Source: Prolixibacteraceae bacterium (GTDB lineage Bacteria > Bacteroidota > Bacteroidia > Bacteroidales > Prolixibacteraceae). Taken from it: 64,000 nucleotides of DNA. Positions 7,618-59,286 of the stretch are shown in pieces (position 1 is the stretch's first letter; every line of letters begins with the position of its first letter). A program made the position numbers and the translations under genes. The stretch lies in contig JBGUEP010000001.1 of NCBI GenBank assembly GCA_041821245.1, positions 78,854-142,853 on the forward strand. The letters run 5' to 3'. Under the pieces are notes generated by a model that was given only the letters and a program-made list of their open reading frames with translations, was not told where the DNA came from and did no database searches.

Positions 7618-7729
7618 TTGATTTATTTTGAATTTAAATGCTTCTATTCGTTTATTTGCAATAAGGTATTTATAGAGCAAGTTTTGAATGATATTTATGC
7701 TTGCACAACAGTACTCCGCTCAATATTTT

Positions 7730-8149
7730 TTATTTCCCGAGAACTATGTTGATCCGCATATCATACAATAGATCAAAAGAAATGTCGTCAAATTCTGGAG
7801 GAAAACTCATTTTTTCCTGATAGGAGAAGCCCCATGGTTCAAGCGGTCCAAACAACCATTTATCGAGTTTGTGATTGCCATTTACATCCTGATAAGCCCT
7901 GATGGCATACCTTCCGGCAGGAACATTCTTAAATTCGTAAGTCACCTGGGTTTTATCATAGTTCACCCAAAATTCAAGCGTATCGATTCCGCTAAATGGG
8001 ATGTTAAATATGGAATCGTTACAGAGGAATACATAAATTTTTCCTTTCGGGTTTGCGGCATTAATACGTCCTGCAACGTTATACGTTTCTTTTTGAGCCA
8101 TTCCCAATATCGATAAAAACAGTAAAACCGATGTAATTATATGTTTCAT
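7730..8149 (-). CDS. DUF2141 family secreted protein
   Basis: ORF 7730..8221. The internal Met (CAT 8147-8149) begins a signal peptide MKHIITSVLLFLSILGMAQ. YAIRAYQDVNGNHKLDKWLFGPLEPWGFS matches the DUF2141 signature (D-N-G-N-x-K-L-D...G-x-P-x-E-x-x-G-F-S). Confidence 0.55.
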   Translation of the reverse strand: MKHIITSVLLFLSILGMAQKETYNVAGRINAANPKGKIYVFLCNDSIFNIPFSGIDTLEFWVNYDKTQVTYEFKNVPAGRYAIRAYQDVNGNHKLDKWLFGPLEPWGFSYQEKMSFPPEFDDISFDLLYDMRINIVLGK

Positions 8150-8550: not shown

Positions 8551-9222
8551 ATGAAAACTCAACTTATTTTTTTTGTACTTTTTATTTCCATGTTAACTTC
8601 TTATGGCCAAACCCGTGTTGTATTCGGTGAAGTGAGTGTTTTTGAAAATATGCGACTTGGTAATATCCTTGTTGAAGCGAAACGTTCCGGTGCAAATGCC
8701 ATGTCTGACTCCCTTGGTCACTTTGGAATTGTATGTGAGAAAAATGATGTGCTGGTTTTTAAAGCGAAGGCATTTAAACCTAAAAAGGTAAAAATACGCC
8801 CTGAAACTGACAGTGTTTTTGTAGGCCTGAAGTTTAAAGATGTTCCTGAAGTTGTAGAAATAGCACTGGAAAGTGGATATATTACACCCAATAATGCAGC
8901 AGGAGCTAAGGCTCAAATGGAAAAGGAGGATGTTGATTTTTGTAAATACAACGATATCTACGAAGCCATTCAGGGGCGTGTGCCTGGTGTTAGGATAATG
9001 GCCAACAATGACATTCTTATTCGAGGAAATACTTCACTAAGTGGAAACAACCCTGCCTTATTGGTTGTGGATGGTAGAATTGTTTCAAGTTTTTCGGACA
9101 CTTCGCCATGCGATGTGAAAGCAATTAAATTTCTGAAGGGTGGCGCAGCATCAATTTATGGTAGCCGCGGAGCCGCAGGTGTAGTGGTTATTGAAACCAA
9201 AAAAGCTAGTGGAAATAACTAG
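8551..9222 (+). CDS. Short secreted protein with a carboxypeptidase-regulatory-like domain and a TonB-dependent-receptor plug-like C-terminus (truncated SusC-like N-terminal module)
   Basis: Signal peptide MKTQLIFFVLFISMLTSYGQ. The C-terminal KFLKGGAASIYGSRGAAGVVVIETKK is the plug-domain motif of TonB-dependent receptors. No beta-barrel follows, as the protein is only 223 aa. Confidence 0.5.
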   Translation: MKTQLIFFVLFISMLTSYGQTRVVFGEVSVFENMRLGNILVEAKRSGANAMSDSLGHFGIVCEKNDVLVFKAKAFKPKKVKIRPETDSVFVGLKFKDVPEVVEIALESGYITPNNAAGAKAQMEKEDVDFCKYNDIYEAIQGRVPGVRIMANNDILIRGNTSLSGNNPALLVVDGRIVSSFSDTSPCDVKAIKFLKGGAASIYGSRGAAGVVVIETKKASGNN

Positions 9223-12295: not shown

Positions 12296-12418
12296 CTTCT
12301 GCTATGTTTAATTCGAGATCAAAGCTATGAGGAAGACACACGCGCGTCGTCCCACTTTTCGAAAGTGAGCCCAATACACGCAAAAATAGGTGTCAATTTA
12401 ATGAAACTGCCCGGAATG

Positions 12419-13573
12419 TTAGGCGTTTTTTCGAAATTCGCCGGGTGTTGTTCCTGTGTATTCCTTAAAAATTCGGTTAAACGAAGCTTTAGAGTTGAAC
12501 CCACATTCGTAAGCAATGGCTAAAATGGTGTAGTGTTGGTAGTGAGGTAAATTCGCAATTTCTTTGAAATAATTCACCCGATAACGGTTTACAAATTCGA
12601 AGAAATTCATTCCAAAATCGCGGTGGATCACCTTGGATAGTTGATGTGGTGGAATACTGGTTTCATTGGTCAAATCGTGAAGGCTTAAACTTTGATTCAG
12701 AAATAGCTTGCGGTCACTCATAATTGACTCCAACATTTTCCCTTCTTCTGATTTTTTTTGAGTGTTAAAGCTGTTGGCTTGACTTTCGATTACAAGGCTT
12801 TCCTTTTCTGCAGTTTCTAAAAATCCGTTTTCGTAGCTAAAAATAGTCCCCTGTTGCCAACCCCAATATCCTAAAAAAAAGATAAAAACGACCAGCAAGC
12901 TATAGAAAACGAAATCGCTTAGGTAAAGTGGTGTTCCGATAAAATAGAATACAATTGCCAAAGTTATCACAATTGCATAAATGATTGAAAAAGTAATGAG
13001 TAGCTTCCACAACCAATAAAGATCAATATTATCGCGGTAAGAGAATAGTTGCAGTACTTTACGTTTATGTTTTCTCAATTTGATAAAAGATAAACCCAGA
13101 TATATTTCAAGGCACGATAAGATTCCAATAAAAGCGCCCCAAATTTTCAATGGCATAGCTAAATTGGCTTGAAAAAGTTGGACTCTTTCTTTGTGGGTGA
13201 GTGAAATTAAAACCACAATAAAATATATGGTTAATATAAACGCAGGAAGGAAATTCCGAAAAATTCGTTTTCTTGGACATCTTTCGCCGGTAATTAAAAT
13301 AATGTAATTGAAAAGAAATATGGCGTGATAGGCCATGAGAATACTTTCATAACCGGCCAATCTGAGCGTTTTCGATTCATCCATTAAATAGAAAAATGGA
13401 ATAAAAAGTTGTGCTGAAAGTACCAGCAACCAAATGCCCAGCATAACATCGGCCCGTGAGCGTTTTGCTTTTTTGAAAATCAAAATGGAAAAGAAGACAG
13501 CGTTCACTGCTCCCAATAAATAGATAAATCTAAAAAACTGAGCGTATTCCATTTTTGTTAGTTTGACCTTCAA
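12419..13573 (-). CDS. Membrane-anchored AraC-family transcriptional regulator (multi-TM N-terminal domain plus C-terminal HTH)
   Basis: About 260 aa of hydrophobic helices, then an AraC HTH (LHDLTNETSIPPHQLSKVIHRDFGMNFFEFVNRYRVNYFKEI...GFNSKASFNRIFKEYTGTTPGEFRKN). Confidence 0.75.
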   Translation of the reverse strand: MKVKLTKMEYAQFFRFIYLLGAVNAVFFSILIFKKAKRSRADVMLGIWLLVLSAQLFIPFFYLMDESKTLRLAGYESILMAYHAIFLFNYIILITGERCPRKRIFRNFLPAFILTIYFIVVLISLTHKERVQLFQANLAMPLKIWGAFIGILSCLEIYLGLSFIKLRKHKRKVLQLFSYRDNIDLYWLWKLLITFSIIYAIVITLAIVFYFIGTPLYLSDFVFYSLLVVFIFFLGYWGWQQGTIFSYENGFLETAEKESLVIESQANSFNTQKKSEEGKMLESIMSDRKLFLNQSLSLHDLTNETSIPPHQLSKVIHRDFGMNFFEFVNRYRVNYFKEIANLPHYQHYTILAIAYECGFNSKASFNRIFKEYTGTTPGEFRKNA

Positions 13574-42460: not shown

Positions 42461-44926
42461 TTAATGAACTATTATTTTTCCTGATACAATTGACTGGTTT
42501 TCAAATTCGACCTTATAAAACAATAGTTTACTCGTTGTTTTTAGTTCCGAACGGTTAACTTGTATGCGGCTGTTTCCTGAAATGTAATAATCAGTGTGCC
42601 CGTAAATTTTTTGCCCTGTTACAGTTGAAATGCTTATGTTGATGTTTTGATCCACTTCAGAATAAAACTGGATGTAAAACTGATCAATTGCAGGATTGGG
42701 GTATACTTTAACCAAATTATCCATCGTAAAGCTTTCAGTTGAAGTACTATTCAATACCGTCACCTTCACTTTATTTGAATCGGTCAATTTCCCATCGTTA
42801 ACGGTTAGTTTAAAGGTGAACGTGCTATCAGTATCAACTTCCGGAGCCATGAACTGTATCTCAGCATTGAATGGATCATTAATGGGTACGCCTTCCGGAC
42901 CTTCCCATTTATACGTTAATTCATCTCCATCTGGATCGTCACCAGTCCCCGTTAATGTTACGAGGGTATTCTCTTTTACTGAAAAATCGCTGCCTGCATG
43001 AGCCGTTGGTGCATTATTATACTCAAAGGCGGGAACAATTTGTTCAAATTGCTCATCCAGCCATTCCATACGTTGCAATACCCAATTTCGCAAGAACTCA
43101 ACATGTTCTTCATAGGTGCCATTACTAAAAACATTGGGCCACACATAGGAGTTTAAAATATTCCACTGATTAAAATTACGATTAGCCGGAACCATCAAAT
43201 CGTTGTAACATGAATCGATAAATGTATTTATTGAATGGTTACTTAATGCTGCCTGACGCAGATCTTCCCAGCGGTATTTTAAGGTGGTTTGCCAGTAAGG
43301 ATCTTCTTTAAATTTATCCCACCAAAATGGAATTTCATTTCCCTGATCGCCTGCGCCAATTCCATCAGCAGCCCAGCCTACAGTATTGCCTCCCTGATAG
43401 AAATTGGCATTTCCAAAGCAAAGGTTGTAATCCCAAAATGGAGTCATAGTTAATTTGCCGCCATTACTGTCTTTATCTTTATGAAAGAAAACACTAACTC
43501 TGTATCCGTCAATATCGCGACTGATTTCAGTGATAAAGAAGTAATCAATGAATGATTCAACATCGATATAGTTTCGATATCCCAATTCCGGATCTATAAA
43601 ATTATTACCATGTAAAGCATCTTCAAAACTGAAAATGTAGTTTTTGATATATTCTCTTTGTTGAACGTTTAATTCATCATACTTCGGATCAATATAAGAG
43701 AATGTCATCTGATAAGTTCCGGTTCTTCCAGGGTAAGGTGAATTAAAACTACCTTCTTGTTGCCGATCGATACTCATAATATAACCACCTGTAAGTTCAT
43801 CACCTTCTATATCTTCTTCTTTTAAGGTCGCAATATCAACTCGGTTTTGATCAATTTTGATTTTCTCAACAAACAGATAAACTCCTCGGTATTCGCTGTT
43901 GATAACCACCTCGACAAATTGCGTTCGTGGATGCCACCCACTCATATTGTTTCCAAAATAATAGGCCAGCGCGTTGCGCATCAGTGATTTGTCAGCATAT
44001 GGACCATGTAGTACCCAGTCGTTCTCTGCAGGCATTCCAAAAAGTGAAACATTGTTATTCGACTCATCTTCATTTCTGGTTTCAACTGTATAGCTTTTCT
44101 TAGGATACGTCTGGGCTGTATTCCCCCTAATTTCTATCCCAATAAACCCGTCATAGGCTAATGAGTCGTTTTTGTCAACATTAAAATAATTTATCTTGTT
44201 TTCATTGTCAACAACTTTCATTTTAGCCATTATCTTGGGCTCGTCAGGAATGGATTTACCTTCAGTATCAATTACAATAATTGGCAAAGAAGAATATTCA
44301 ATTTCCACGGGTTCCTGAAACCAATTGGGTATTTCATTGAATTCAATTGTTGTTCCTTCAATTTGAGCATTTAAGAACACTCTTCCCGATAGATCAGAAG
44401 AATTGCTTGAAATGTTAATTATCTGAACAGCAAGGATGTTGTTGCCCTCAACTAAAAGTGTTGGATCAATTCCAATACGTTCCGGGTTTCCACCACTGTA
44501 CATTATTGCTTCGTGATCGGCAGATACAGAAGGAGTTAATCCTACCTCTCCGGCAGCTAAATTCAATGAGCGTGCAACTTCATCTCCATTTAAGTACGCC
44601 ACAAATGCATCGTCGTAGTCAATATCCAGCAACAAACTCATTATGTTTACCCCACTTCGGATATTAAATGTTTTGCGCATGTATACCGAAGATGTTCCTA
44701 CAGGTACAGTGGTATTGTCGTCTTCGTCGGCATACCCAAAGCCACCAGGTCCCTGGAGCCAATTGTTATCATCAAAGGATATTGAGACCCAATCAGAAGA
44801 AGGTGCTTCGGTTGGTACAAAGTAGGTCCAGGTATTATCTTCAAGAATAATACTTTCCCAATGTGATTGTGCCCATAATTGGTTTGAAAATAGAAATAGA
44901 AGCAGGATGATATTATACTTTTTCAT
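42461..44926 (-). CDS. CotH-family secreted protein with a PKD-like domain and T9SS C-terminal sorting domain; sole gene inside the nadA-3'-repeat-bracketed insert
   Basis: Signal peptide MKKYNIILLLFLFSNQLWAQ. CotH-like core (SYTVETRNEDESNNNVSLFGMPAENDWVLHGPYADKSLMRNALAYYF...EYRGVYLFVEKIKID). PKD-like segment (APTAHAGSDFSVKENTLVTLTGTGDDPDGDELTYKWEGPEG). C-terminal VYPNPAIDQFYIQF...KIIVH. Confidence 0.7.
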   Translation of the reverse strand: MKKYNIILLLFLFSNQLWAQSHWESIILEDNTWTYFVPTEAPSSDWVSISFDDNNWLQGPGGFGYADEDDNTTVPVGTSSVYMRKTFNIRSGVNIMSLLLDIDYDDAFVAYLNGDEVARSLNLAAGEVGLTPSVSADHEAIMYSGGNPERIGIDPTLLVEGNNILAVQIINISSNSSDLSGRVFLNAQIEGTTIEFNEIPNWFQEPVEIEYSSLPIIVIDTEGKSIPDEPKIMAKMKVVDNENKINYFNVDKNDSLAYDGFIGIEIRGNTAQTYPKKSYTVETRNEDESNNNVSLFGMPAENDWVLHGPYADKSLMRNALAYYFGNNMSGWHPRTQFVEVVINSEYRGVYLFVEKIKIDQNRVDIATLKEEDIEGDELTGGYIMSIDRQQEGSFNSPYPGRTGTYQMTFSYIDPKYDELNVQQREYIKNYIFSFEDALHGNNFIDPELGYRNYIDVESFIDYFFITEISRDIDGYRVSVFFHKDKDSNGGKLTMTPFWDYNLCFGNANFYQGGNTVGWAADGIGAGDQGNEIPFWWDKFKEDPYWQTTLKYRWEDLRQAALSNHSINTFIDSCYNDLMVPANRNFNQWNILNSYVWPNVFSNGTYEEHVEFLRNWVLQRMEWLDEQFEQIVPAFEYNNAPTAHAGSDFSVKENTLVTLTGTGDDPDGDELTYKWEGPEGVPINDPFNAEIQFMAPEVDTDSTFTFKLTVNDGKLTDSNKVKVTVLNSTSTESFTMDNLVKVYPNPAIDQFYIQFYSEVDQNINISISTVTGQKIYGHTDYYISGNSRIQVNRSELKTTSKLLFYKVEFENQSIVSGKIIVH

Positions 44927-45323: not shown

Positions 45324-46046
45324 CTAAAAAGTATCCGTTAAATCAGCAATTTTAAAAAGTTTTTGCGTATCTAAAACTATAATTTTTCGCCCTTTTTTTT
45401 CAATTAAATTTTCCTTTTCAAATGTGCTTAAGATGCGAACAAGGGTTTCAACCGCAATCCCAACAATGTTTGCAAAGTCTTCGCGGGTAAGCACAATTTG
45501 AATCTCATTGTCGTCATTTCTGTTTTGTCTGAAGTTTTCGTTGAGGATGAGTAGCGTAAGTGCCACCCTTTCTCTTACACTTTTTGTGGTAAAGGTAGCG
45601 ATGAAGTTAACCATTACTCCAAATTCATGACTTAGCTTTTTAGTCAGCAGGTTGGATAGTTCTTCGTGTTTATCCAACAATCGATCTAGTTTATCTTTTG
45701 AAACAAAACCGATCAATGAATCGGTAATTGCGGCGGCCGAATCCTGATATTTTTCTTCTCCCAGAAATGCTGCGTATCCAATCATCTCACCTTCGTTACA
45801 CAAATAAATTATTTGTTCCTTTCCTCCATTGAGACTTTTAAATTTTTTTACCTTTCCCTTCTTCACAAAATAAATGCCTAGTGGGTATGCCCCTTCTGTG
45901 AAAATATTTTGCCCCCGCTTAAATTGCTTGGCGATCATCTGGTTTTTGAAATCTAGCTGAACATTTTCAGGTAAGCTTTCAAAATCAAATTCCCGTTTCA
46001 GGTTAAATCGTTCCTTTATTTTATTTAAAAGACTATCCATATTCAA
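45324..46046 (-). CDS. Crp/Fnr-family transcriptional regulator (cNMP-binding domain plus C-terminal HTH)
   Basis: cNMP-binding beta-roll (IFTEGAYPLGIYFVKKGKVKKFKSLNGGKEQIIYLCNEGEMIGY) and HTH (LTREDFANIVGIAVETLVRILSTFEKENLIEKKGRKIIV). No N-terminal Cys cluster, so it is not an FNR-type O2 sensor. Confidence 0.8.
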   Translation of the reverse strand: MNMDSLLNKIKERFNLKREFDFESLPENVQLDFKNQMIAKQFKRGQNIFTEGAYPLGIYFVKKGKVKKFKSLNGGKEQIIYLCNEGEMIGYAAFLGEEKYQDSAAAITDSLIGFVSKDKLDRLLDKHEELSNLLTKKLSHEFGVMVNFIATFTTKSVRERVALTLLILNENFRQNRNDDNEIQIVLTREDFANIVGIAVETLVRILSTFEKENLIEKKGRKIIVLDTQKLFKIADLTDTF

Positions 46047-46086: not shown

Positions 46087-46516
46087 CTTTATTCCTGATT
46101 TAGATCAAGATTACGATTTCCAAATGAATTACTTTTGTCAATAATTAAGATTATATTTTTTGAATTATTTTATGTCATTTCCGTGTTGTCATTGTTAACT
46201 GTTTTGTTTCTGGTGTTGGGGATTATAGGAATTTTATTTGTTTAGGTAAAGAACAGAGCATTGGTTTCCATTACTGTTGTAACAACAAATGTAATAATTC
46301 CACATAATACATAGATATTTAGGTTGGTAAGTGTTGTTCCGACCATTCGGATACTTCACTATTTGAAATTCTTTTGATAAGAAAATTGCCATCTGAAATT
46401 ACACAAATCTAAGTGCCAGGTCACAATTCGATGATGCCATCAAGGATAAGCAGATTCATTGTTTGGTATGTACTGACACTGAATTAGGTTTAATTATTTA
46501 TGAACTAAAAAAGAGA

Positions 46517-48532
46517 ATGGAAAAACATATTGTTGAAATATTAAATTTGTTGGCCATCTTGTCTTTGGCAATTTTCCCATTTTTGAAGGCACGAAAATTA
46601 GCTTTTACGGCACTTGTTTCAATTATCGTTCAAGTTCTTTTATCGTTCGTTCTGGTTTATCAGGTTTTTACCAATGGAAGCGTCGAATACAGCTATAGCG
46701 GGTCGTTAATCACAGGAAGTATTTCGGTGAAAATTGATTATTTGTCGGCATGGTTCATTCTGGTTATCGTGTTTACCTATTTCACAGGTGCCTGGTATGG
46801 AATACACTACATGAAAAAATACCGTGAACAAACAAGCAACCTAATTTTACATGCCATTGCTTACATATTCGTTTTTATAGGCTTGATTGATATTTGCATT
46901 GTGCAAAACAGCATTGTGTTTCTGGTTGTTTGGGAAATTATGGCTTTTAGTTCATTTATCGTGATCGTTTTTGAACACTATAACAAAGAAACCTTAAAGG
47001 CGGGATTAAATTTTTTGATTCAGTCGCACATCTCCATTCTGTTTTTAACCATCGCATTTATTTGGGCCAAAGTAAAAACAGGTTCTTTTGATTTTTCAGC
47101 CATTTCGGTTTATACCGCACTTCATCCACGCATGGGTTTAGGTTTGTTCGCCTTGTTTTTTATCGGATTTGCAATAAAAGCAGGATTCGTACCTTTTCAT
47201 ACCTGGCTACCCCATGCACACCCTGTTGCTCCTGCCCATATTTCAGGTGTAATGTCGGGAGTGATTATTAAAATCGGAATTTTTGGAATTTTACGAATGC
47301 TCACAATAATCAACGCCAATTATACCATCATTGGAGTTTGCATCCTGATCATTTCAATAGTTACTGGTTTATACGGGGTAATGATGGCCATTGTGCAAAA
47401 TAACCTGAAACGTTTGCTAGCCTATAGTAGTATCGAAAACATTGGGATTATTGGTTTGGGAATTGGGTTGGGTTGTCTCGGAAAAGCATCGAATCATCAA
47501 TGGCTGGTGATTGCCGGATTTGGAGGGGCATTGCTGCACACACTCAACCATTCACTTTTTAAATCGTTACTTTTTTATATTGCCGGAAATGTTTATCAGG
47601 CTACCCACACCTTGAATATTGATTCGTTGGGCGGGTTGCTGAAGAAAATACCACGCACTGCATACCTGTTTCTTATCGGATCGTTGGCTATTTGCGGCTT
47701 TCCGCCTTTCAATGGATTTGTGTCGGAGTTCTATATTTACAATGGATTTTTCAAAGGCCTTCAATCGAACCAGTCGATGTTTAACCTTGCCATGCTTTTT
47801 TCCATTTTTGCCTTGGTGCTTATTGGTGGATTGGCATTAATCACCTTTACCAAAGCTTTTGGTATTGTTTTTTTAGGCAAAAGCCGCGAACCTTTGCATG
47901 TTGATGAAACATTCGATAATCAGGCTGTGGTTTTCCCATTCTATCTCATTGCCTTGGCCATGTTGCTTGTGGGTTTATTTCCGATTCTGTTTTCGTCATC
48001 GCTATTAAAAACAAGTTCTCTTTTTTTCAATACAAGTGATTCATATTCTTTTGTATATCTTGACAAAATGGTAGGTGATATTTCTTCGATTGGATTTTAT
48101 TCAATCGGTTTTATATTGCTGGCGGCTACTTTTTTCGTTTTACGAAAGATGATCACCAGCAAACGACCTTCGCAAACTTATGAAACCTGGGGTTGTGGTT
48201 ATGTTGCCCCAATCCAAAAGGCACAATATTCAGGGAGATCATACACTCGAACTTATAGCCGTCTGTTTGCTCCTATAGTATATGAAGGGAAAGATTTTAA
48301 ACGAATTAAAAAGACAAGTCTTTATCCGAATCATCGTAAATTCTCGACTTACTACGCCGACTTTTGGGAACAATACCTTGTACTTCCGCCTACACGATGG
48401 GTCTCTTTTATTTTGGATAAGTTTCAATTTATTCAAAATGGAAATGTTCAGTCGTATGTGATTTATGGTTTAGCTTTTATTCTTGTGATTGTGATCGTTT
48501 CGATGTTAAGTTCAATTAATCTGGGAGTTTAA
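46517..48532 (+). CDS. Complex-I NuoL / hydrogenase-4 HyfB-like antiporter-type membrane subunit (copy 1)
   Basis: ORF 46463..48532. Start placed at ATG 46517 (MEKHIVEILNLLAIL...) by alignment with the start of paralogue copy 2. WLPHAHPVAPAHISGVMSGVIIKIGIFGILR matches the NuoL/ND5 consensus region ([31 protein letters not shown]). Confidence 0.8.
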   Translation: MEKHIVEILNLLAILSLAIFPFLKARKLAFTALVSIIVQVLLSFVLVYQVFTNGSVEYSYSGSLITGSISVKIDYLSAWFILVIVFTYFTGAWYGIHYMKKYREQTSNLILHAIAYIFVFIGLIDICIVQNSIVFLVVWEIMAFSSFIVIVFEHYNKETLKAGLNFLIQSHISILFLTIAFIWAKVKTGSFDFSAISVYTALHPRMGLGLFALFFIGFAIKAGFVPFHTWLPHAHPVAPAHISGVMSGVIIKIGIFGILRMLTIINANYTIIGVCILIISIVTGLYGVMMAIVQNNLKRLLAYSSIENIGIIGLGIGLGCLGKASNHQWLVIAGFGGALLHTLNHSLFKSLLFYIAGNVYQATHTLNIDSLGGLLKKIPRTAYLFLIGSLAICGFPPFNGFVSEFYIYNGFFKGLQSNQSMFNLAMLFSIFALVLIGGLALITFTKAFGIVFLGKSREPLHVDETFDNQAVVFPFYLIALAMLLVGLFPILFSSSLLKTSSLFFNTSDSYSFVYLDKMVGDISSIGFYSIGFILLAATFFVLRKMITSKRPSQTYETWGCGYVAPIQKAQYSGRSYTRTYSRLFAPIVYEGKDFKRIKKTSLYPNHRKFSTYYADFWEQYLVLPPTRWVSFILDKFQFIQNGNVQSYVIYGLAFILVIVIVSMLSSINLGV

Positions 48533-48535
48533 GTT

Positions 48536-50566
48536 ATGGGAAAAAACCTGATTGAAATAATTAACCTGCTCGCAATCATCACCATTGTGATTTTACCTTT
48601 TTTAAGTACAAAAAAAATGGGCATTGTCACGCTCACGGTAATTTCAGTTCAAGTTGTTTTGGCTTTTGTGGTTGCGTTTTTGGCTTTTTCAGACGGGTTT
48701 ATTTCATTCACATACAAGGGTTCGCTGGCTACCGGCGAAATTCCTATCCGCATTGACTATTTATCGGCATGGTTTATCGGTATTATCAGTTTCACTTTTT
48801 TTACCGGGGCATGGTATGGTTTTCAGTATATGAAAATGTATCGTGATCAACACTCCAATTTAGTTTTACATGCAACTGCATTTATTCTGGCATACACCGC
48901 GCTAATCGACATTTGCATCGTTCAAAATGCTATCGTCTTTTTAGTGATGTGGGAAATAATGACCATTAGTTCGTTTATAACCATCATTTTTGAACACTAT
49001 AAAAAAGAGACCTTAAAGGCTGGGATCAATTTTTTCATTCAATCGCATGTGGCCATTCTTTTTCTCACCATCGCCTTTATTTGGGTGAAAGTAAAAACCG
49101 GATCATTCGACTTTGCAGAAATATCAAAGCTCACAGCCATGCATCCTGCAATGGGAATCGGATTGTTTGTCTTTTTCTTTATTGGATTTGCCATCAAAGC
49201 CGGATTTGTTCCTTTTCATACCTGGCTCCCATTGGCCCACCCGGTAGCACCTGCCCATATCTCAGGAATCATGTCGGGCGTTATCATAAAAATTGGCATT
49301 TTTGGCATTCTGCGTATGATTGTTTTGATCAAAACCGATTACATGACCATTGGTTACTTCATTTTAATTGTTTCGGTAATTACCGGAGTGTACGGGGTTT
49401 CGCTGGCCATTATTCAACACAATCTGAAACGTTTACTAGCCTACCACAGCATCGAAAATATAGGGATCATTGGCATTGGCATTGGTCTGGGATGTCTGGG
49501 CATTGGGATGGAAAATCAGTTATTGCTTATGGCTGGATTTGGCGGGGCGCTGCTACACACCTTGAACCACTCACTTTTTAAATCGCTGTTGTTTTATAGT
49601 GCCGGAAATGTTTATCAGGCAACTCACACCTTAAATATTGAATCGTTGGGAGGACTAATCAAAAAGATTCCACAATCGACCTATCTGTTTTTGATTGGAG
49701 CTTTGGCCATTTGTGGTTTGCCTCCTTTTAATGGTTTTGTTTCCGAATTTCTGATTTACAATGGCTTGTTCAAAGGATTGTTGTCGAATCATTTTATGTT
49801 TATACTGGTGATGCTTTTTTCCATTTTAGCCATGGTTTTAATCGGAGGCCTTGCCCTTATTTGTTTTACCAAGGCTTTTGGAATAGTGTTTTTAGGCAAA
49901 GCCCGAAAAGAATTGCCATCGGATAAAATCATTGAAAAACCCTTACAAGTTGGCTCCTTATACTTAATTGCTTATGCGATAACCGTGATTGGGGTATTGC
50001 CGATTTTATTCACTTCGCCCCTAAGTAAAGCAGCACATCTTTTTCAAAAAAATCCAGACCTGTTTCTTGCTGATGGTCTCACCCAAAACCTAACTATTTT
50101 GACTCTTATCGGTTTGTATTCTTTGGGCTTTGTGGCACTTACAGTACTGGCTTTGTATATCCGACGATTGATTATAAAACGCCGATCGGTTTTAACTGAC
50201 GCTACCTGGGGTTGTGCCTATGTGGGTGATGGAAAAAATATGCAGTACACCGCTTCATCTTTCATCCGTACTTTCAGGAAACTGGCTGAGCCGCTGTTTT
50301 TAATTAAAAAAACAAAAACAGTGGCAACCGGCCTTTACCCAACAACCATAAAACAAAGCACACACCCCTACGACAGATTGGAGTCGGCTTTGATTGACAA
50401 ACCAATTTATTTTTTCAGAAAGGTGTTGAACCGCTTTGTTTTTTTGCAGAATGGTAACATTCAAGCCTACATTCTTTACGGATTTATTTTTATTTCAACG
50501 GCCATAATTTTGCCAATACTAATTTCTAAGTTCATGGTATTTATTCACTTCTTAAATCAATTGTAA
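48536..50566 (+). CDS. Complex-I NuoL / HyfB-like antiporter-type membrane subunit (copy 2, tandem paralogue)
   Basis: Roughly 70 percent identical to copy 1 along its full length (e.g. YLSAWFIGIISFTFFTGAWYGFQYMKMYRDQHSNLVLHA vs YLSAWFILVIVFTYFTGAWYGIHYMKKYREQTSNLILHA). Starts 3 bp after copy 1 ends. Confidence 0.8.
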   Translation: MGKNLIEIINLLAIITIVILPFLSTKKMGIVTLTVISVQVVLAFVVAFLAFSDGFISFTYKGSLATGEIPIRIDYLSAWFIGIISFTFFTGAWYGFQYMKMYRDQHSNLVLHATAFILAYTALIDICIVQNAIVFLVMWEIMTISSFITIIFEHYKKETLKAGINFFIQSHVAILFLTIAFIWVKVKTGSFDFAEISKLTAMHPAMGIGLFVFFFIGFAIKAGFVPFHTWLPLAHPVAPAHISGIMSGVIIKIGIFGILRMIVLIKTDYMTIGYFILIVSVITGVYGVSLAIIQHNLKRLLAYHSIENIGIIGIGIGLGCLGIGMENQLLLMAGFGGALLHTLNHSLFKSLLFYSAGNVYQATHTLNIESLGGLIKKIPQSTYLFLIGALAICGLPPFNGFVSEFLIYNGLFKGLLSNHFMFILVMLFSILAMVLIGGLALICFTKAFGIVFLGKARKELPSDKIIEKPLQVGSLYLIAYAITVIGVLPILFTSPLSKAAHLFQKNPDLFLADGLTQNLTILTLIGLYSLGFVALTVLALYIRRLIIKRRSVLTDATWGCAYVGDGKNMQYTASSFIRTFRKLAEPLFLIKKTKTVATGLYPTTIKQSTHPYDRLESALIDKPIYFFRKVLNRFVFLQNGNIQAYILYGFIFISTAIILPILISKFMVFIHFLNQL

Positions 50567-50567
50567 T

Positions 50568-51473
50568 ATGCTTAGCTTTTTACTCATCATATTGTCGAGC
50601 TTTGTTTTTATGGGCATTGTTGTTCGCACCAAAAGCTTGTCATCGGGACGAAAAGGACCAGGTATATTTCAACCTATGAAAGATATTTTCAGACTTTGGA
50701 AAAAAGGATCGGTAATCAGCACCACAACAAGCCTGATCTTTCAAATTGCCCCAACCATTTATTTTGCTTCTATTGTAATGGCCATTTTAATGATCCCTCA
50801 TGGAAAATTACCGGGAATTATTTCATTCGACGGCGATTTTGTAATGTTTGCCTATGTACTTGCCATTGGGAAATTTATGATGATTGTTTCGGCACTCGAT
50901 ACGGGAAGCAGCTTTGAAGGGATGGGAGCGAGCCGCGAGGCACTTTTCTCCATGTTGGTTGAACCTGCGTTTTTTATCATCATGGGATCGTTTGCGCTTT
51001 TCACCGGCCATACTTCATTTTACGAGATATTCAGTACGCTCAATTACGGACCTTACATTTCGTACCTGATTGGCGGCCTGGCCACTTTTGTGATCATACT
51101 AATTGCCATGGTCGAAAATAGCCGAATGCCCGTTGACGATCCGAAGACCCACCTGGAGCTTACCATGGTTCACGAAGTAATGATTTTGGACAATAGCGGT
51201 TTCGATTTGGGTTTGATCATGTATGCCACTCCCCTAAAATTTGCCATGTATGGCGCACTGATCTCAAACTTTTTTATTGGCGAAATCCCAATTCTGATAT
51301 CGATTCCAATGTTTTTCGGGATTCAATTTGTAATTGCTGTTTTCGTTGGCTTACTTGAATCGTTTATGGCACGGTTCAGGATGAACCACAACCCTCAGTT
51401 TATATTTATTCTAACTTCGGTATCGCTGCTTATCTTTTTCGGAGTGTTACTGGTATTGGGTAAATTCATTTAA
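50568..51473 (+). CDS. NuoH / HycD / HyfC-like membrane subunit
   Basis: IVVRTKSLSSGRKGPGIFQPMKDIFRLWKKGSV matches the NuoH N-terminal ERK...R.GPN..G..G.LQP.AD..K consensus. Eight predicted TM helices. Confidence 0.8.
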   Translation: MLSFLLIILSSFVFMGIVVRTKSLSSGRKGPGIFQPMKDIFRLWKKGSVISTTTSLIFQIAPTIYFASIVMAILMIPHGKLPGIISFDGDFVMFAYVLAIGKFMMIVSALDTGSSFEGMGASREALFSMLVEPAFFIIMGSFALFTGHTSFYEIFSTLNYGPYISYLIGGLATFVIILIAMVENSRMPVDDPKTHLELTMVHEVMILDNSGFDLGLIMYATPLKFAMYGALISNFFIGEIPILISIPMFFGIQFVIAVFVGLLESFMARFRMNHNPQFIFILTSVSLLIFFGVLLVLGKFI

Positions 51474-51484
51474 ATTATACGACT

Positions 51485-52114
51485 ATGACTGATATCTTGC
51501 TGATAACATTTACCATAACGCTACTCTTTATGAGTATTGCCAACCGGATTTATACCTACCTGAATATTCTGATTTTTCAGGGGATAATCCTTTTTGGCGC
51601 CACCTATCTTTCATTGACCGAAATTAACACGGCCAATCTGATATTCATCATGATTGAAACCATTGTGGTAAAAGCCATTGCTGTGCCCATGTTTATGAAA
51701 TACATCATTAAACGAAATAAAATCACCAGAGAAACAGAACCCTTTCTGCCCAACTTCATTTCGTTGATTATTGTAACCGCGATCATCATCATTACAATTA
51801 TTTTATCAAGTGCTGTTAGCGATGTAAATCTCGATAAGACTTATTTTGTTGTCGCTTTATCGAACCTTTTTACGGGTTTGTATTTAATTGTTTCACGTAA
51901 AAAAATCATTGTCCATGTTATCGGATATCTGGTTATTGAAAATGGAGTTTTTGTATTGGCACTTGCCGTTGGTAACGAAATGCCGATGCTGGTAAACATG
52001 GGAATTATGCTCGATATTTTTGCCAGTGTGTTAATTCTTGGGATCTTCTTCAATAAAATTGGCGATTATTTGAATAACCCTGATGTAACTCTTCTAAGCA
52101 ATCTAAAAGATTAA
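51485..52114 (+). CDS. HyfE-like (NuoK-related) small membrane subunit
   Basis: 209 aa, all hydrophobic helices. The C-terminal GYLVIENGVFVLALAVGNEMPMLVNMGIMLDIFASVLILGIF resembles the NuoK/HyfE conserved E-N-G region. Confidence 0.5.
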   Translation: MTDILLITFTITLLFMSIANRIYTYLNILIFQGIILFGATYLSLTEINTANLIFIMIETIVVKAIAVPMFMKYIIKRNKITRETEPFLPNFISLIIVTAIIIITIILSSAVSDVNLDKTYFVVALSNLFTGLYLIVSRKKIIVHVIGYLVIENGVFVLALAVGNEMPMLVNMGIMLDIFASVLILGIFFNKIGDYLNNPDVTLLSNLKD

Positions 52115-52118
52115 TAAT

Positions 52119-53543
52119 ATGATTGGTATTTTTTTAATAGGAACAATTGTCATTTCGGCCTGGCTGTTTTTTAACAAAAACAGAATTGTCAACTACTCTT
52201 TACTTGTGGGCTATACGATTCTACTTTGGGCATTGGGATTTTACGAGTACAATCATATTAACCTCATCGAACTTAGATTCTTTAAACCTGATGCTTTAGG
52301 AATTTTACTTCTTTTTGCCATGTGTATTGTTAGCATTCCCGCCTTTTACCATGGTTACAGGTATATTGTTACGCACGATGAAACGCCTCACACCCGAGGA
52401 TTGTTCTTTGCCGCGATGGTATTGTTGATGTCGGCCTGCAGTATGGCATACCTGTCAAACCACATTGCAGTTACCTGGATTTTTGTTGAAATTACAACAC
52501 TTAGTGCATCGGCACTAATCTACCATCACCGCAACATTAGGGCACTCGAAGGAGTTTGGAAATATGTTTTTATTTGTGCGCTCAGTATCACTTTTATCTA
52601 CATTGGCATTCTGTTTTTGAGTTTATCGATGAAACAAGCGGGTATCGAAGGCATGTCGTTCGATTCAATTCTTCAAAATGTGGAAAAGCTTGATTTGTTT
52701 TGGTTGAAACTCGCCTTCCTTTTCATTTTCACCGGATTTACAGCAAAAATTGGTTTGGTACCCATGTATACTGCGGGTGTCGATGCCAAGGATAAAGCCC
52801 CGGCTCCGGCAGGTGCATTGCTCTCAAGTGTTTTAATGAACATGGGATTTGTGGGTATTTACAGGGTGTATGCAATTCTTACCCACACTGAGTTACAACA
52901 TTGGGCATCAGTTATTATGATTATATCTGGCCTGTTATCAGTATTCGTAGCAACGGTTTACATGACCCATATCAAAAACATCAAACGCATGTTCGCCTAT
53001 TCGAGCATCGAACACATGGGATTAGTGATGTTGGGCCTAGCCGTTGGTGGAATTGGTGTTTATGCCGCCATTTTACATCTCATTCTTCATACTTTTGTAA
53101 AATCCAGTTTATTTTTTCAATACAATCAAATTTTTCTGGTTTATAAAAGCAAAAGCATCTACGATTCAGGTCATTACTTTAAATACAACAAGATTGGTGC
53201 TATTGTAATCTTGTTGGCCTTTATTTCGGCCACGGCTATGCCTCCATCAGGTTTGTTCGTCTCCGAATTTTTAATTTTTCAGGCCCTGTTCGAAGCTCAT
53301 TACATTGTTATTCTAATTGCACTTTTAATCCTATTGACCATGATTATCTGGGGATTTGGAACAAATATTTTCAAATTACTTTTTACGCCTCCATTGAAAC
53401 TAGATGAAACCACTATTCCTAAGATAAATCCTTGGAATTCGTTCTCTCAATTTGCATTGTTGGCATTGTCGGTTTATTTAGCCTATAGCCCGCCACCAGT
53501 ATTTGTGCAACTGATTCAGGATGCTGTAACCCTTGTTCAATAA
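52119..53543 (+). CDS. NuoN/NuoM / HyfF-like antiporter-type membrane subunit
   Basis: 474 aa with about 14 TM helices and a proton-pumping-subunit core (FTAKIGLVPMYTAGVDAKDKAPAPAGALLSSVLMNMGFVGIYR). Confidence 0.7.
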   Translation: MIGIFLIGTIVISAWLFFNKNRIVNYSLLVGYTILLWALGFYEYNHINLIELRFFKPDALGILLLFAMCIVSIPAFYHGYRYIVTHDETPHTRGLFFAAMVLLMSACSMAYLSNHIAVTWIFVEITTLSASALIYHHRNIRALEGVWKYVFICALSITFIYIGILFLSLSMKQAGIEGMSFDSILQNVEKLDLFWLKLAFLFIFTGFTAKIGLVPMYTAGVDAKDKAPAPAGALLSSVLMNMGFVGIYRVYAILTHTELQHWASVIMIISGLLSVFVATVYMTHIKNIKRMFAYSSIEHMGLVMLGLAVGGIGVYAAILHLILHTFVKSSLFFQYNQIFLVYKSKSIYDSGHYFKYNKIGAIVILLAFISATAMPPSGLFVSEFLIFQALFEAHYIVILIALLILLTMIIWGFGTNIFKLLFTPPLKLDETTIPKINPWNSFSQFALLALSVYLAYSPPPVFVQLIQDAVTLVQ

Positions 53544-55067: not shown

Positions 55068-55829
55068 ATGTTAGATAATCTAAAAATATTATGGCATCAG
55101 GGGAAACAGTTTATTCCAGATGTTACCACCGCAAAAGTACCAGGCATCTTTAGAGGACGACCAATCATAACTAAAAATCAAGTGAATGAAGAGCTGCTGG
55201 TTGACTTATGTCCAACAAAAGCCATTTCAAGAAACCCATTGTGCATCGATTTGGGCAAGTGCACTTTTTGCGGCGAATGTGCGGTGCAATTTCCAGATAA
55301 GATTTCATTTACCAAGGATTATAAATTATCAACAAATATAAGGGAACGCTTAATAATTCATGAAGTTGAAGATGCGCCAATTATGGTTGATCCAACGCTT
55401 GTTCGAAAAGAAATTCATCGTTTGTTTGGACGTTCGCTTAAGTTGAGGCAGGTTTCAGCAGGTGGCGATAACAGTACTGAATGGGAATTGAACGCATCGA
55501 ATAATGTTCAGTTCGACATAAGCCGCTTTGGGATCGATTTTGTAGCCTCGCCTCGCCATGCCGATGGAGTTGTAATTACAGGCCCCATTACCTCAAACAT
55601 GGCCGAGTCCCTCGAACGATGCTACCATGCCATTCCCGAGCCTAAAATCATCATCCTTGCCGGTACTGATGCCATCAGCGGAGGTATTTTTGCCGACAGC
55701 CCGGCAATCGACCGGAGCTTTTTAACGAAATACCCAATCGACTTATATATTGCAGGTAACCCTGTTCATCCTTTAACATTTATCAATGGTGTATTAAATT
55801 TAACACGAACCAAATCTACCAGAAGATGA
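55068..55829 (+). CDS. Fusion of a ferredoxin-like (NuoI/HycF-related) domain with a NuoB / hydrogenase-small-subunit-like domain that lacks all four N2-cluster cysteines
   Basis: N-terminal DLCPTKAI...CIDLGKCTFCGECAVQFP has one possible 4Fe-4S site. The C-terminal part aligns to NuoB (SPRHADGVVITGPIT...EPKIIILAGTDAISGGIF...LYIAGNPVHP vs SPRQADLMVVAGT...EPKWVISMGACANSGG...VYIPGCPPRPE). The cluster cysteines are replaced: CC to N/S, C to T, C to N. Confidence 0.7.
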   Translation: MLDNLKILWHQGKQFIPDVTTAKVPGIFRGRPIITKNQVNEELLVDLCPTKAISRNPLCIDLGKCTFCGECAVQFPDKISFTKDYKLSTNIRERLIIHEVEDAPIMVDPTLVRKEIHRLFGRSLKLRQVSAGGDNSTEWELNASNNVQFDISRFGIDFVASPRHADGVVITGPITSNMAESLERCYHAIPEPKIIILAGTDAISGGIFADSPAIDRSFLTKYPIDLYIAGNPVHPLTFINGVLNLTRTKSTRR

Positions 55830-56245
55830 AGAATTTACGATTTGCTTTTGCCATAGGAGATGATAATCTAATTGCTGAAACGAAATTTAGTGATGCTTCT
55901 ATGATCCGAATTTACGAGTATCTTTTTACTGAAAAATGTTTGAATTTTATTTCAGAAGAGATAAATCCTGTTTTTGAAATAAAAGATCATGATGAAAAAG
56001 TCAGCATTTTGATTGATTTCCTCAGCAGCAATAATATTGATTTGCTTGTCGCAAAAAAATATGGAATAATGATAGAAGTTGAAAATAAATATTTTGTTCC
56101 AATAGTTGTTTCAAATTCATCACCCCAAAGAGTGGTCGAATTAATCACAAAACAAATCAACTGGCTTTATGATGAACTTGAATTAGAAAAAAAAGAACAC
56201 ATGATTATTCGAATTGACAAAGGTGTTTTTAAGTATAAATTATAA
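55826..56245 (+). CDS. Small hypothetical protein, possibly a NifX/NifB-like (Nitro_FeMo-Co family) cofactor-binding fold; translationally coupled to the preceding gene
   Basis: The ATGA start/stop overlap with 55068..55829 indicates coupling. MKNLRFAFAIGDDNLIAETKFSDASMIRIYEY resembles the MKIAIP..DG..S.HFG.A..F.IYE start of NifX-like proteins. The similarity is weak. Confidence 0.3.
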   Translation: MKNLRFAFAIGDDNLIAETKFSDASMIRIYEYLFTEKCLNFISEEINPVFEIKDHDEKVSILIDFLSSNNIDLLVAKKYGIMIEVENKYFVPIVVSNSSPQRVVELITKQINWLYDELELEKKEHMIIRIDKGVFKYKL

Positions 56246-56248
56246 GAA

Positions 56249-57238
56249 ATGAATAAAATAAATGCTGCAATTACAGGAATCGAATCCTACTTGCCCGAGT
56301 ATATTTTAACCAACGAAGAATTAAGCCAAATGGTTGATACCTCTGATGAGTGGATCATGCAACGAGTTGGAATTAAGGAAAGACGGATTCTTAAGGGCGA
56401 TGGTTTGGCCACCTCGGATATGGGTGCCGCGGCGACTAAAAAATTATTGGCTAAAACGGGTACAAAACCAGAAGAAATTGATTTTGTAATAGTGGCAACA
56501 GCAACGCCCGACATGTCTTTCCCTTCTACTGCTTGTCTCATAGCTGAAAAATCAGGTATAAAAAACTCCTGGGGCTTTGATTTGAGTGCAGCTTGTTCCA
56601 GTTTTTTGTTTGCACTTGAAACTGCCAGTCATTTTATTGAATCAGGAAAATATAAAAAAATTCTGTTGGTTGCTGCCGATAAAATGTCATCGATTACAGA
56701 TTATACAAATAGAAATACTTGCGTTTTGTTTGGCGATGCAGCTGTAGCTATGCTAATTGAACCTACAACGGAAGAAGTTGGCGTAATGGATTCCCTCTTG
56801 CAAATTGATGGTATTGGGAAAGACTTCCTTTATATGAAAGCGGGAGGATCATTGAAACCTGCTTCCCATGAAACGGTTGATGCAAAAGAGCATTTTATGT
56901 ATCAGGATGGAAAAGCCGTATTTAAAGTGGCTGTATCTAAAATGTCTGATGTTTCGGTAGAAATAATGAGGCGAAATGAATTAAAGCCTGAAGACCTGGC
57001 CTGGTTTATTCCTCATCAGGCAAATTTAAGGATCATTGACGCTGTTGGTCGTCGTATGGGCATGACTGCAGATAAAGTGATGATAAACATTGAAAAATAT
57101 GGAAATACAACCAATGCTACAATTCCATTATGCCTTTGGGAACTTGAGCATAAATTAAAGAAAGGTGATAATCTAATTTTATCTGCTTTTGGAGGAGGAT
57201 ATACGTGGGGATCGATCTATTTGAAATGGGCTTATTAA
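56249..57238 (+). CDS. fabH: 3-oxoacyl-ACP synthase III (KAS III)
   Basis: Cys-His-Asn triad context: [27 protein letters not shown]. Starts 4 bp after the previous gene. Confidence 0.9.
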
Positions 57239-57267
57239 TTAAGAAAAGATCTTTAAAAACAAACGAT

Positions 57268-58521
57268 ATGAAACTAAAAAGAGTTGTTATTACAGGATTA
57301 GGAGCTTTAACTCCCATTGGAAATAATGTTAATGATTTCTGGAAGAATCTTATTCAGGGTAAAAGTGGTATTGCCGAGATTACAAAATTTGATGCCTCTC
57401 CTTTTAAAACAAAATTTGCCGGAGAATTAAAAGGCTTCGATCCTTTGCTATTTATGGAAAAAGCACAAGCCCGCAAGATGGACTCCTATTCACAATATGC
57501 CGTTGCGGTTGTTGATGAATGCATCAAAGATTCAAATATTGATTTAAAAAATACCGATCTCAGCAAAGTTGGTGTAATATGGGGTACTGGTATTGGTGGC
57601 ATCGAAACTTTCGAAAAGGAGATTATTGAATATGGAGCAAATTTAGATTCCCCTCGTTTCAGTCCTTTTTTTGCTACTAAAATGATTTCGAATATGGCTG
57701 CCGGTAATATTTCAATTCATTATGGTTTTCGTGGAGTCAGTTATGTTACTGCATCAGCCTGTGCTTCAAGCAACAATGCAATTATCAATGCATATAATAA
57801 TATACAACTAGGTAAAGCTAATGTTATTTTTGCCGGAGGTTCTGAAGCAAGCATTACCCCTGCTGGAATTGGAGGGTTTAGTTCGATGAAAGCAATTTCG
57901 CAACGCAACGAATCCCCCGAAACAGCTTCTCGTCCCTTTGATGTTTCACGCGATGGTTTTGTATTGGCTGAAGGTGCCGGTGTAATTATGCTTGAGGAAC
58001 TGGAGCACGCTAAAAACAGGGGAGCAAAAATATATGGCGAAATTGCAGGTGGCGGCTGTGCTTCTGATGCCTACCATATTGCTGCACCTCATCCCGAAGG
58101 CATTGGTGCCGTGGCGGCAATGACCGAAGCCATTAACGAAGCCGGTTTGTTGCCCGAAGATGTCGACTATGTAAGTACGCACGGCACGGCTACTCCTATT
58201 GGCGACTTAAGCGAATGTAAAGCTATCGTAACCGTTTTCGAAAACTCGCTCGATAAATTACACATTAGTGCAACAAAATCAATGACCGGACACTTATTGG
58301 GTGCTGCCGGGGCAATTGAAGCAATTGCTTGTATAAAATCCATAAACACTGGAATCGTACCTCCAACCAGCAATCTCAATGAAATTGATCCTGCCATTGA
58401 TAAACGAATTAACTTAACGCCAAATGTAGCAGTAACGAAAACGGTGAATGTGGCTTTAAACAACACATTTGGTTTTGGTGGACATATTTTTGTTTCGCTT
58501 TTTAAGAAATACAAAGAATAG
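57268..58521 (+). CDS. fabF: 3-oxoacyl-ACP synthase II (KAS II)
   Basis: ORF 57205..58521. The likely start is ATG 57268 (MKLKRVVITGLGALTPIGN). Cys-His-His triad: SACASS, VSTHGTATPIGD, SMTGHLLGAAG. Confidence 0.9.
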   Translation: MKLKRVVITGLGALTPIGNNVNDFWKNLIQGKSGIAEITKFDASPFKTKFAGELKGFDPLLFMEKAQARKMDSYSQYAVAVVDECIKDSNIDLKNTDLSKVGVIWGTGIGGIETFEKEIIEYGANLDSPRFSPFFATKMISNMAAGNISIHYGFRGVSYVTASACASSNNAIINAYNNIQLGKANVIFAGGSEASITPAGIGGFSSMKAISQRNESPETASRPFDVSRDGFVLAEGAGVIMLEELEHAKNRGAKIYGEIAGGGCASDAYHIAAPHPEGIGAVAAMTEAINEAGLLPEDVDYVSTHGTATPIGDLSECKAIVTVFENSLDKLHISATKSMTGHLLGAAGAIEAIACIKSINTGIVPPTSNLNEIDPAIDKRINLTPNVAVTKTVNVALNNTFGFGGHIFVSLFKKYKE

Positions 58522-58572
58522 GTTTGTCCATAGGAATACGAAATCTTTTTTTGATGGGATTCGACCTGTAGA

Positions 58573-59286
58573 TTACAGGTTTAAATAGAATGCTTTTACA
58601 AATTGAATAAAACCGGAAGTGTAAGTATGGCGGGTTTCAGTTTCTATTATCAATTCATCTTCTTTAAGGTTTAATGATTCAAATTGAAATTTAATTAATA
58701 CTCTTTTTACCGGTTTTAATGGATTCGGTTTAACCTGTGTGATGCGTGAAGGGTAAAGCTTGAATTTCGAGGCAATTGTAATCATTTCAATTTTAGCTTC
58801 AATGGGCAAAATCACACAAAACCTGCCTGTATGTTTTAACAATTTTGCAACTCCATCAATCAATTCCTCGAAACTGAGGGTGTCGGTATGCCTTGCAAGT
58901 GACTTTTCCATTTGCTTCGATTTTAATGAATTAGAAAAGAAGGGGGGATTCGAAACAATACAATCGTAGAGCTTCGCAGTTTGACCAACATATTCCTGAA
59001 TGGAACAATGAACTACGGTCATGCGTTCGGCCCAGGGAGATTGATTGAAATTAAATCCGGCATCTTTGATGGCGCCTTCTTCAATATCAATGGCATCGAT
59101 TTGAGCATTTGAGCGTTGAGCCAGCATCAATGCGATTACACCGGTGCCCGTTCCTATATCCAGAATGGTCGTAGCTTTTTCTGCTTCGGCCCATGCACCA
59201 AGCAATACACCGTCGGTACCTACGCGCATGGCTGCATGGTTTTGCACGACTCTGAACTGCTTAAACTGAAAATAATTATTGGACAT
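58573..59286 (-). CDS. tRNA (adenine37-N6)-methyltransferase TrmN6/YfiC-like
   Basis: FQFKQFRVVQNHAAMRVGTDGVLLGAWA, a SAM-binding DIGTGTGVIALMLAQR, and IVSNPPFF (the NPPF/Y N6-adenine methyltransferase motif). Confidence 0.7.
   Translation of the reverse strand: MSNNYFQFKQFRVVQNHAAMRVGTDGVLLGAWAEAEKATTILDIGTGTGVIALMLAQRSNAQIDAIDIEEGAIKDAGFNFNQSPWAERMTVVHCSIQEYVGQTAKLYDCIVSNPPFFSNSLKSKQMEKSLARHTDTLSFEELIDGVAKLLKHTGRFCVILPIEAKIEMITIASKFKLYPSRITQVKPNPLKPVKRVLIKFQFESLNLKEDELIIETETRHTYTSGFIQFVKAFYLNL

Follow-up and report, generated by a model that had tools for sequence, protein, structure and literature searches.

An Ehr operon of Prolixibacteraceae with a NifX-like gene and paralogous fabH and fabF genes at its 3' end: a probable lineage-specific, eroding addition

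Ehr complexes are defined as machines that do not metabolise H2 and that couple a cytoplasmic redox reaction to ion translocation. They are widespread, yet to our knowledge they have neither an established function nor an established partner enzyme, and a conserved neighbour of the Ehr genes would therefore be a rare clue. The criterion used in the literature is a large subunit without the Ni/Fe-binding cysteines (PMC6349859, PMC7304191, PMC5037454), and HydDB classes the Ehr proteins as non-hydrogenase homologues (PMC5037454). Here, an Ehr operon is described in a 64-kb stretch of DNA (the window) from a Prolixibacteraceae metagenome-assembled genome (MAG). The 3' end of the operon carries three further genes: one for a NifX-like protein of 139 residues (X139) and paralogues of fabH and fabF, which encode ketoacyl-acyl carrier protein (ACP) synthases III and II (KAS III and KAS II). 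The three genes are probably a lineage-specific add-on to the 3' end of Ehr, co-transcribed with it, which was acquired in one ancestral accretion and has been eroding since.

In an alignment of the Ehr large subunit to E. coli HycE (7z0s_E), all four NiFe cysteines are replaced, the CGIC motif of HycE by TGDT and the DPCYSC motif by NLSYSG. This replacement justifies the Ehr label. The window contains the membrane and small-subunit set (three PF00361 proteins, PF00146, PF01058 and a HyfE-like NF008556 protein). The NuoB-like domain of the small subunit has lost the cysteines of the N2/proximal cluster, and in its N-terminal ferredoxin-like stretch C48, C65, C68 and C71 are invariant in 24 orthologues. 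The small subunit is strongly conserved, with 65-90 % identity across thousands of Bacteroidota proteins; the window protein has Thr at a position where at least 90 % of the orthologues carry Cys137. The first-pass annotation of this DNA had called the operon Ehr-like, and the HycE alignment together with the missing small-subunit cluster cysteines bears this out.

The + strand between about 46.5 and 58.5 kb carries ten genes in head-to-tail order (Table 1). The X139 gene begins with the ATG within AGATGAAG and overlaps the small-subunit gene by the four nucleotides ATGA (55826-55829). Its stop codon TAA is separated by 3 nt from the fabH ATG at 56249. The mechanically listed open reading frame (ORF) of fabF opens at GTG 57205, inside fabH. 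When read from ATG 57268 (MKLKRVVITG), the gene encodes the 417-residue FabF that is also the product called by NCBI, and the homologues are all 414-419 residues long. With this ATG as the true start, the fabH-fabF spacer is 29 nt. The ORF placement and the ATGA overlap of the first-pass annotation are confirmed. Its adjacency of X139 and fabH also holds, with 3 nt between the stop codon and the fabH ATG; the fabF start, which it had put inside or adjacent to the fabH end, lies inside fabH only in its mechanical GTG version.

The tail of X139, fabH and fabF is rare among Ehr loci. The survey covered one genome per GTDB species and 80 of more than 593 matched loci, with up to 10 kb of flanking sequence; in 70 of the 80 loci the sequence continues for 1.5 kb or more beyond the small subunit. 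None of the 80 carries X139, fabH or fabF downstream of the small subunit, and most of the surveyed operons end at that gene. No hidden genes of the X139 family (the X family) were found in the other Ehr loci either by hidden Markov model or by tblastn, which is sensitive to members of the family down to 28 % identity. A literature search on an Ehr-fab linkage, on islands of DUF134 and PF02579 genes and on Bacteroidetes fabH/fabF paralogues found nothing relevant.

All the Ehr loci that do carry the tail genes, or parts of them, fall into a single clade, which unites the window with loci L003 and L004, L002 and L171 (neighbour-joining tree of the large and small subunits; bootstrap 98/100). 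The full tail is present in the window and in its 86 % relative, L001. In L171, from a Salinivirgaceae MAG, the small subunit is followed by a 42 % homologue of X139 (P0125) and then by rubrerythrin, with no fab genes. In L002, from Labilibaculum antarcticum (AP018042.1), a fabH stump that is fused to the end of the small subunit precedes an intact fabF (74 % identity). The sequence immediately after the small-subunit stop codon of L002 matches residues 269-329 of the window FabH at 66 %, and a deletion has evidently removed X and most of fabH. X, fabH and fabF are all missing from the sister lineage of the window, represented by L003 and L004. The gap after the small subunit contains a remnant of these genes in L002 only; none are found in the gaps of L003, L004 and L171. 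The fabH of L001 is split into two ORFs of 134 and 199 residues by the loss of 2 nt from an A-rich run (at about 2838-2842, window position about 56650); this may be a real frameshift or a Logan assembly error.

Because its distribution is limited to one small lineage and it decays in the relatives, the tail looks like an evolutionary add-on and not like a new machine that turns energy into lipid. X, fabH and fabF would have been accreted in a single event, in the ancestor of a small Ehr clade, and piecemeal losses would then have occurred independently. As all instances trace to one clade, there were at most two accretion events. The first-pass annotation had named absence of the linkage from close relatives as an outcome that would speak against it, and this is largely what is seen: synteny is missing from all the species-representative loci, confined to one small clade and eroding there. 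Being clade-restricted and eroding, the fabH-fabF pair gives no clue to the function of Ehr in general.

The tight packing of the genes makes it likely that X139, fabH and fabF are co-transcribed with Ehr. The first-pass annotation had argued from the spacing for one transcript from 46.5 to 58.5 kb, with which the ATGA overlap and the two short spacers agree. All three tail genes would most likely be driven by the Ehr promoter, which the divergent Crp-family regulator would control. The stretch from 55829 to 56249 has no space for a terminator, and up to the end of fabF terminator prediction gives nothing but one weak intragenic match. No Rfam element is present between 45 and 60 kb of the window. 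The hairpin that lies between the convergent fabF and methyltransferase genes is a possible bidirectional terminator without statistical support. Scans for sigma-70 and Bacteroidetes-type promoter motifs are uninformative because their counts are at chance level. It is unlikely that fabH and fabF form a transcription unit of their own, with a promoter inside the coding sequence of X139 or of the small subunit, so that only X139 would belong to the Ehr operon. X139 does follow Ehr without fab genes in L171, and a self-standing fabH-fabF pair exists elsewhere (P0204). In Labilibaculum, however, the small-subunit gene is immediately followed by the fabH stump and fabF. A sigma-70-like match (56214-56243) and a TAnnTTTG match (55685) might supply the promoter, but matches of either kind are as frequent as expected by chance, and with 3 nt between X139 and fabH there is no space for an untranslated leader.

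Table 1. Genes and other elements of the Ehr operon region (window positions)
Feature	Position	Strand	Basis or remark
Crp-family regulator, cNMP-binding and HTH_Crp_2	45324-46046	-	Pfam matches; divergent from the Ehr operon
Tandem HyfB/Mrp-antiporter-like membrane subunits	46463-48532, 48536-50566	+	PF00361; NF005086 (hydrogenase-4 subunit B) below cut-off
NuoH-like membrane subunit	50568-51473	+	PF00146
HyfE-like membrane subunit	51485-52114	+	NF008556
HyfF/NuoN-like membrane subunit	52119-53543	+	PF00361
Ehr large subunit, NuoC-NuoD/HycE-like, 500 residues	53550-55052	+	PF00346 and PF00329
Ehr small subunit, NuoB-like, 253 residues	55068-55829	+	PF01058
X139, 139 residues, NCBI ACERKD_00530	55826-56245	+	NifX/MTH1175-like by profile and fold
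fabH paralogue, KAS III, 329 residues	56249-57238	+	TIGR00747
fabF paralogue, KAS II, 417 residues	57268-58521	+	TIGR03150
8-bp hairpin ACCUGUAG-AUU-ACAGGU	58563-58579		between convergent fabF and methyltransferase genes; z-score -1.0

FabH scores 374.3 bits against TIGR00747 (cut-off 292.1) and 409.5 bits against NF006829 (cut-off 249), and FabF scores 548.8 bits against TIGR03150 (equivalog cut-off 493.75). Their best PDB matches are 8vd9 (E 4e-80) and 1j3n (E 3e-122), and they are 37 % and 44 % identical to the E. coli enzymes, respectively. Residues Cys116, His256 and Asn286 of FabH align with C112, H244 and N274 of E. coli FabH; Cys165, His305 and His342 of FabF and its gating Phe403 align with the corresponding E. 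coli residues. Relative to B. subtilis FabHA, FabH has an insertion of about 13 residues around residues 198-210. By residue conservation, the two genes are predicted to encode catalytically intact accessory copies of KAS III and KAS II. The housekeeping fabF and fabH genes of Bacteroidota are usually found in acpP-fabF-rnc and rpmF-plsX-fabH loci. No homologue of PlsX, FabD, FabG, AcpP or RpmF (L32) is found in the 64-kb window by tblastn with E. coli queries, and the first-pass annotation had likewise noted no acpP, plsX or other fab genes nearby. The KAS III and KAS II that it had reported are genuine by the NCBIfam cut-offs and are of a type that is not linked to acpP or plsX. Two other origins of the pair were considered and rejected. 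The genes do not belong to a flexirubin, aryl-polyene or polyketide cluster, as ACP, reductase, dehydratase and further ketosynthase genes are missing. They are not recent foreign DNA, as the GC fraction of the region (0.37) is within the range of the window (0.35-0.43).

The genomic contexts of seven FabF relatives (P0204, L006, L088, L007, L169, L170 and L002; 64-78 % identity) were compared, and none of the seven has acpP, plsX, fabD or fabG beside fabF. P0204 is a bare fabH-fabF pair, and in L002 the fabF relative stands behind Ehr. Two-gene units of TetR and fabF (65-69 % identity; gene at 10001 or 6001) are found in L007, L169 and L170, the hosts being Mangrovibacterium, another Bacteroidales genome and a Cyclobacteriaceae MAG. 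The FabF of these units is apparently an accessory KAS II under regulatory control, with a wide distribution in Bacteroidota. In L006 (7164-11245) and L088 (6511-9257), relatives of fabH and fabF with 70-76 % identity are parted by PNPOx-like, DUF1847 or KduI genes and are embedded in NifX/DUF134/Fe-S islands, which contain FeoAB, Fer4, DUF4405, radical SAM, DUF169, PF02579 and DUF134 genes. Judged by these contexts without acpP, the window FabF behaves as a member of an accessory, often relocated paralogue family with many representatives across Bacteroidota. As fabH is reduced to a stump in L. antarcticum, the organism can do without that copy and must have another KAS III. Such FabF and FabH copies outside the acpP and plsX loci matter for the annotation of fatty-acid synthesis in Bacteroidota.

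X139 itself matches no Pfam or NCBIfam model, and no match to PF02579 appears even at E <= 10. A word-indexed search returned only three close relatives, and an exhaustive search with a profile of X139 and its close relatives was used instead; it yielded 70 representative proteins of about 140 residues. PF02579 (Nitro_FeMo-Co) is matched by 46 of the 58 aligned family members, with a best E of 6.4e-11. A PDB profile search with the family gives weak matches to MTH1175, TM1816 and NifX (E 0.018-0.056). The AlphaFold model of X139 reached a pLDDT of 38 with three sequences and of 93.3 with the 58-sequence alignment. The top PDB matches of this model in Foldseek are 2re2, 9ian_F (NifX), 1o13, 1t3v, 2kla and 1eo1, and the best matches among them are the structures of TA1041m, NifX, TM1816, MJ0327 and MTH1175 (E 1.6e-5 to 2e-2; TM 0.55-0.64 over about 110 residues). 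The model also has a C-terminal helix and hairpin of about 30 residues, which is common to the subfamily of about 140 residues. By virtue of the PF02579 matches of the family and the matches of the model, the NifX/NifB-like call of the first-pass annotation is correct at the level of profile, superfamily and fold; it does not extend to a direct Pfam match.

The subfamily motif HFG[DE]A reads KFSDA in X139, with K for H. The HG(S)xxKG loop is missing, and AKKYG stands in place of SxQFGKN. The histidine of HFG[DE]A and the HG...KG loop are presumed to be ligand-binding residues of the subfamily. Proteins P0125-P0128 (35-43 % identity), of which P0127 (MDZ7607696.1) is from Cyclobacteriaceae, form a subclade with X139, and all of its members share the loss of the HFG histidine, the HG...KG loop and the SxQFGKN motif. 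Against the 86 % relative, the dN/dS ratio of X139 is 0.18, compared with 0.13 for the small subunit; this purifying selection shows that X139 is a real gene. It can be described as a fast-evolving member of the NifX/MTH1175-like subfamily that has come to be associated with this Ehr clade. Of the three tail genes X139 is the most interesting, as its position behind the Ehr small subunit recurs in two families; it may be a clade-specific protein, probably a small accessory or chaperone-like partner of Ehr.

The neighbourhoods of 80 typical X-family members from metagenomes were also compared; this sample covers the motif-rich, HFG-containing subset and excludes the X139-like subclade. These genes sit in islands that encode PF02579 proteins, ParA/CbiA-Fer4 NTPases, DUF134, FeS_assembly_P, CGGC, ARMT1-like, radical-SAM and MFS proteins, and none of the 80 has Ehr or fab genes nearby. 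Within the islands (L089-L168), the typical members are often tandem duplicates or triplicates, for example in L130, L146, L150 and L152, and the members adjoin genes for an MFS transporter, radical-SAM and ARMT1-like proteins and an archaeal-type threonyl-tRNA synthetase editing domain (PF08915). In L. antarcticum, one PF02579-type island directly abuts the Ehr-fabF locus. Since the X family and the fab pairs of L006 and L088 are found in such islands, and since an island abuts Ehr-fabF in L. antarcticum, it is plausible that the tail originated as a fragment of a PF02579-type island placed behind Ehr.

If the tail is an add-on, its placement behind Ehr would cause extra condensing capacity, and so extra capacity to start and extend acyl chains, to be co-expressed with a large membrane complex, and ion translocation and acyl synthesis would have no direct mechanistic link. 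Several observations weigh against this account. The TAnnTTTG match mentioned above is a possible promoter inside coding sequence, such matches being at chance frequency. Both fabF and X have been kept behind Ehr in two families each, which could reflect a selective benefit of the linkage. The account also calls for housekeeping fabH and fabF genes elsewhere in this genome, which we infer. Lastly, L002 (8733-9995) and L171 (7918-9180) have a gene for a malic enzyme of 420 residues between the Ehr large- and small-subunit genes, and its presence in the operon is a hint of lipogenesis as a theme, which would not be expected from pure chance accretion. Malic enzyme is a classic supplier of NADPH and pyruvate. 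The two enzymes are 84 % identical, and neither the window nor any of the 80 other Ehr loci has the gene. L171 also has a DMT_6 gene (7486-7854). In L002, a gene resembling acyl-ACP thioesterases and 4HBT proteins (12408-12824, - strand) is convergent to the Ehr-linked fabF, and a 57-residue fragment, 60 % identical to its product, is encoded near the fabF relative of L006 (12717-12887).

These features raise the question of whether Ehr and a lipogenic set (X139, KAS III and KAS II, with malic enzyme in the sister lineages) form a genuine functional module, which we consider improbable. In such a module, the complex could draw on the ion-motive force to provide NADPH or reductant of low potential from which a specialised acyl product is made, or it could require lipid remodelling. 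The linkage, or parts of it, is found with tight operon packing in three families of one Ehr clade, yet all instances come from that clade, and none of the 80 other Ehr loci carries any of these genes. The closely similar malic enzymes and the thioesterase-like gene beside fabF in L002, with its fragment near the L006 fabF, would suit a lipogenic set. The set has nevertheless been lost independently in part or in whole: fabH in Labilibaculum, fabH-fabF in the Salinivirgaceae and all three genes in L003 and L004. Moreover, FabF and FabH of the same type are present in unrelated neighbourhoods, and the fabH-fabF pair is not accompanied by an ACP, reductase, dehydratase or acyltransferase gene. 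The rarity, the piecemeal decay and the missing companion genes together argue against a dedicated acyl-product pathway and against a mechanistic coupling of acyl synthesis to the ion-motive force. The first-pass annotation had raised such coupling as a possibility beside simple co-regulation, and it is not supported. The corresponding history, in which the Ehr clade would have successively recruited malic enzyme, a histidine-less NifX-like protein, KAS III and KAS II and thereby tied the complex to lipogenesis, has an equally slight chance of being correct. Were it true, the complex could supply or consume ferredoxin or NAD(P)H, or need a dedicated acyl product or lipid environment, and X139 would be a clade-specific accessory subunit of Ehr. 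The leads on Ehr that emerge from this clade are the divergent NifX-like protein, which follows the small subunit in two families, and the malic enzyme in the operons of the sister lineages.

It is very doubtful that the window fabH and fabF are the organism's only housekeeping copies, placed behind Ehr by chance so that the linkage is mere gene order: both enzymes exceed equivalog or subfamily cut-offs and look catalytically normal, and FabF is 64-69 % identical to the FabFs of other Bacteroidota orders, as is typical of conserved housekeeping enzymes, but the orthologous fabH is only a 61-codon stump in the cultured L. antarcticum, no examined relative of the window FabF adjoins acpP, and three of the relatives are TetR-regulated singletons, typical of conditionally expressed paralogues.

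The surroundings of the operon can be described briefly. The listed start of the first Ehr gene is TTG 46463 (689 residues); the alternative ATG 46517 (MEKHIVEIL...) is its probable true start because the orthologues are 666-669 residues long. The Crp-family regulator is without an N-terminal cysteine cluster of the Fnr type, and its orthologues (61-80 % identity) occupy the same divergent position in L003, L005, L011 and L013. A gene just upstream of that of the regulator (42461-44926, - strand) encodes a CotH-kinase-domain protein of 821 residues with PKD/Ig domains and a C-terminal sorting domain of the type IX secretion system. On the 3' side of fabF, there are genes for a methyltransferase, a DUF2400 protein, an MBL-fold protein, an ABC ATPase and a Na/Ca exchanger. 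Farther away, an ORF of 223 residues (8551-9222) matches only the first 200 or so of the 981 positions of the SusC/RagA model and may be a truncated SusC gene or a pseudogene.

The locus can be compared with four known systems. FabH and FabF resemble the type II fatty-acid synthesis enzymes in passing the NCBIfam cut-offs and in keeping the Cys-His-Asn and Cys-His-His residues; unlike the genes of those loci, they are not in a plsX-fabH-fabD-fabG-acpP-fabF or acpP-fabF arrangement. X139 shares its alpha/beta fold with the PF02579 family of NifX, NafY, the NifB C-terminal domain, MTH1175 and TM1816, and its sequence relatives match PF02579. It differs from that family in falling below the Pfam model and in its altered histidine motif, and the window offers no nitrogenase context. 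The islands of PF02579, DUF134, ParA-Fer4 NTPase, CGGC and ARMT1-like genes of anaerobic Bacteroidota are the home of the typical subfamily of X139 and of the fabH...fabF genes of L006 and L088, whereas in the window no other island gene stands beside X139-fabH-fabF.

The closest system is Ehr itself. As in the known Ehr complexes, there are subunits similar to Mrp antiporters, NuoH, NuoCD and NuoB, and the large subunit is without the Ni/Fe cysteines. In contrast to them, no partner oxidoreductase such as formate dehydrogenase is encoded near the operon of the window, and the small subunit has lost the NuoB cluster cysteines and has an N-terminal ferredoxin-like stretch with four cysteines. 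The Bacteroidales type also differs in carrying two tandem HyfB-like subunits, and the clade described here differs further in the operon tail of X139, fabH and fabF.

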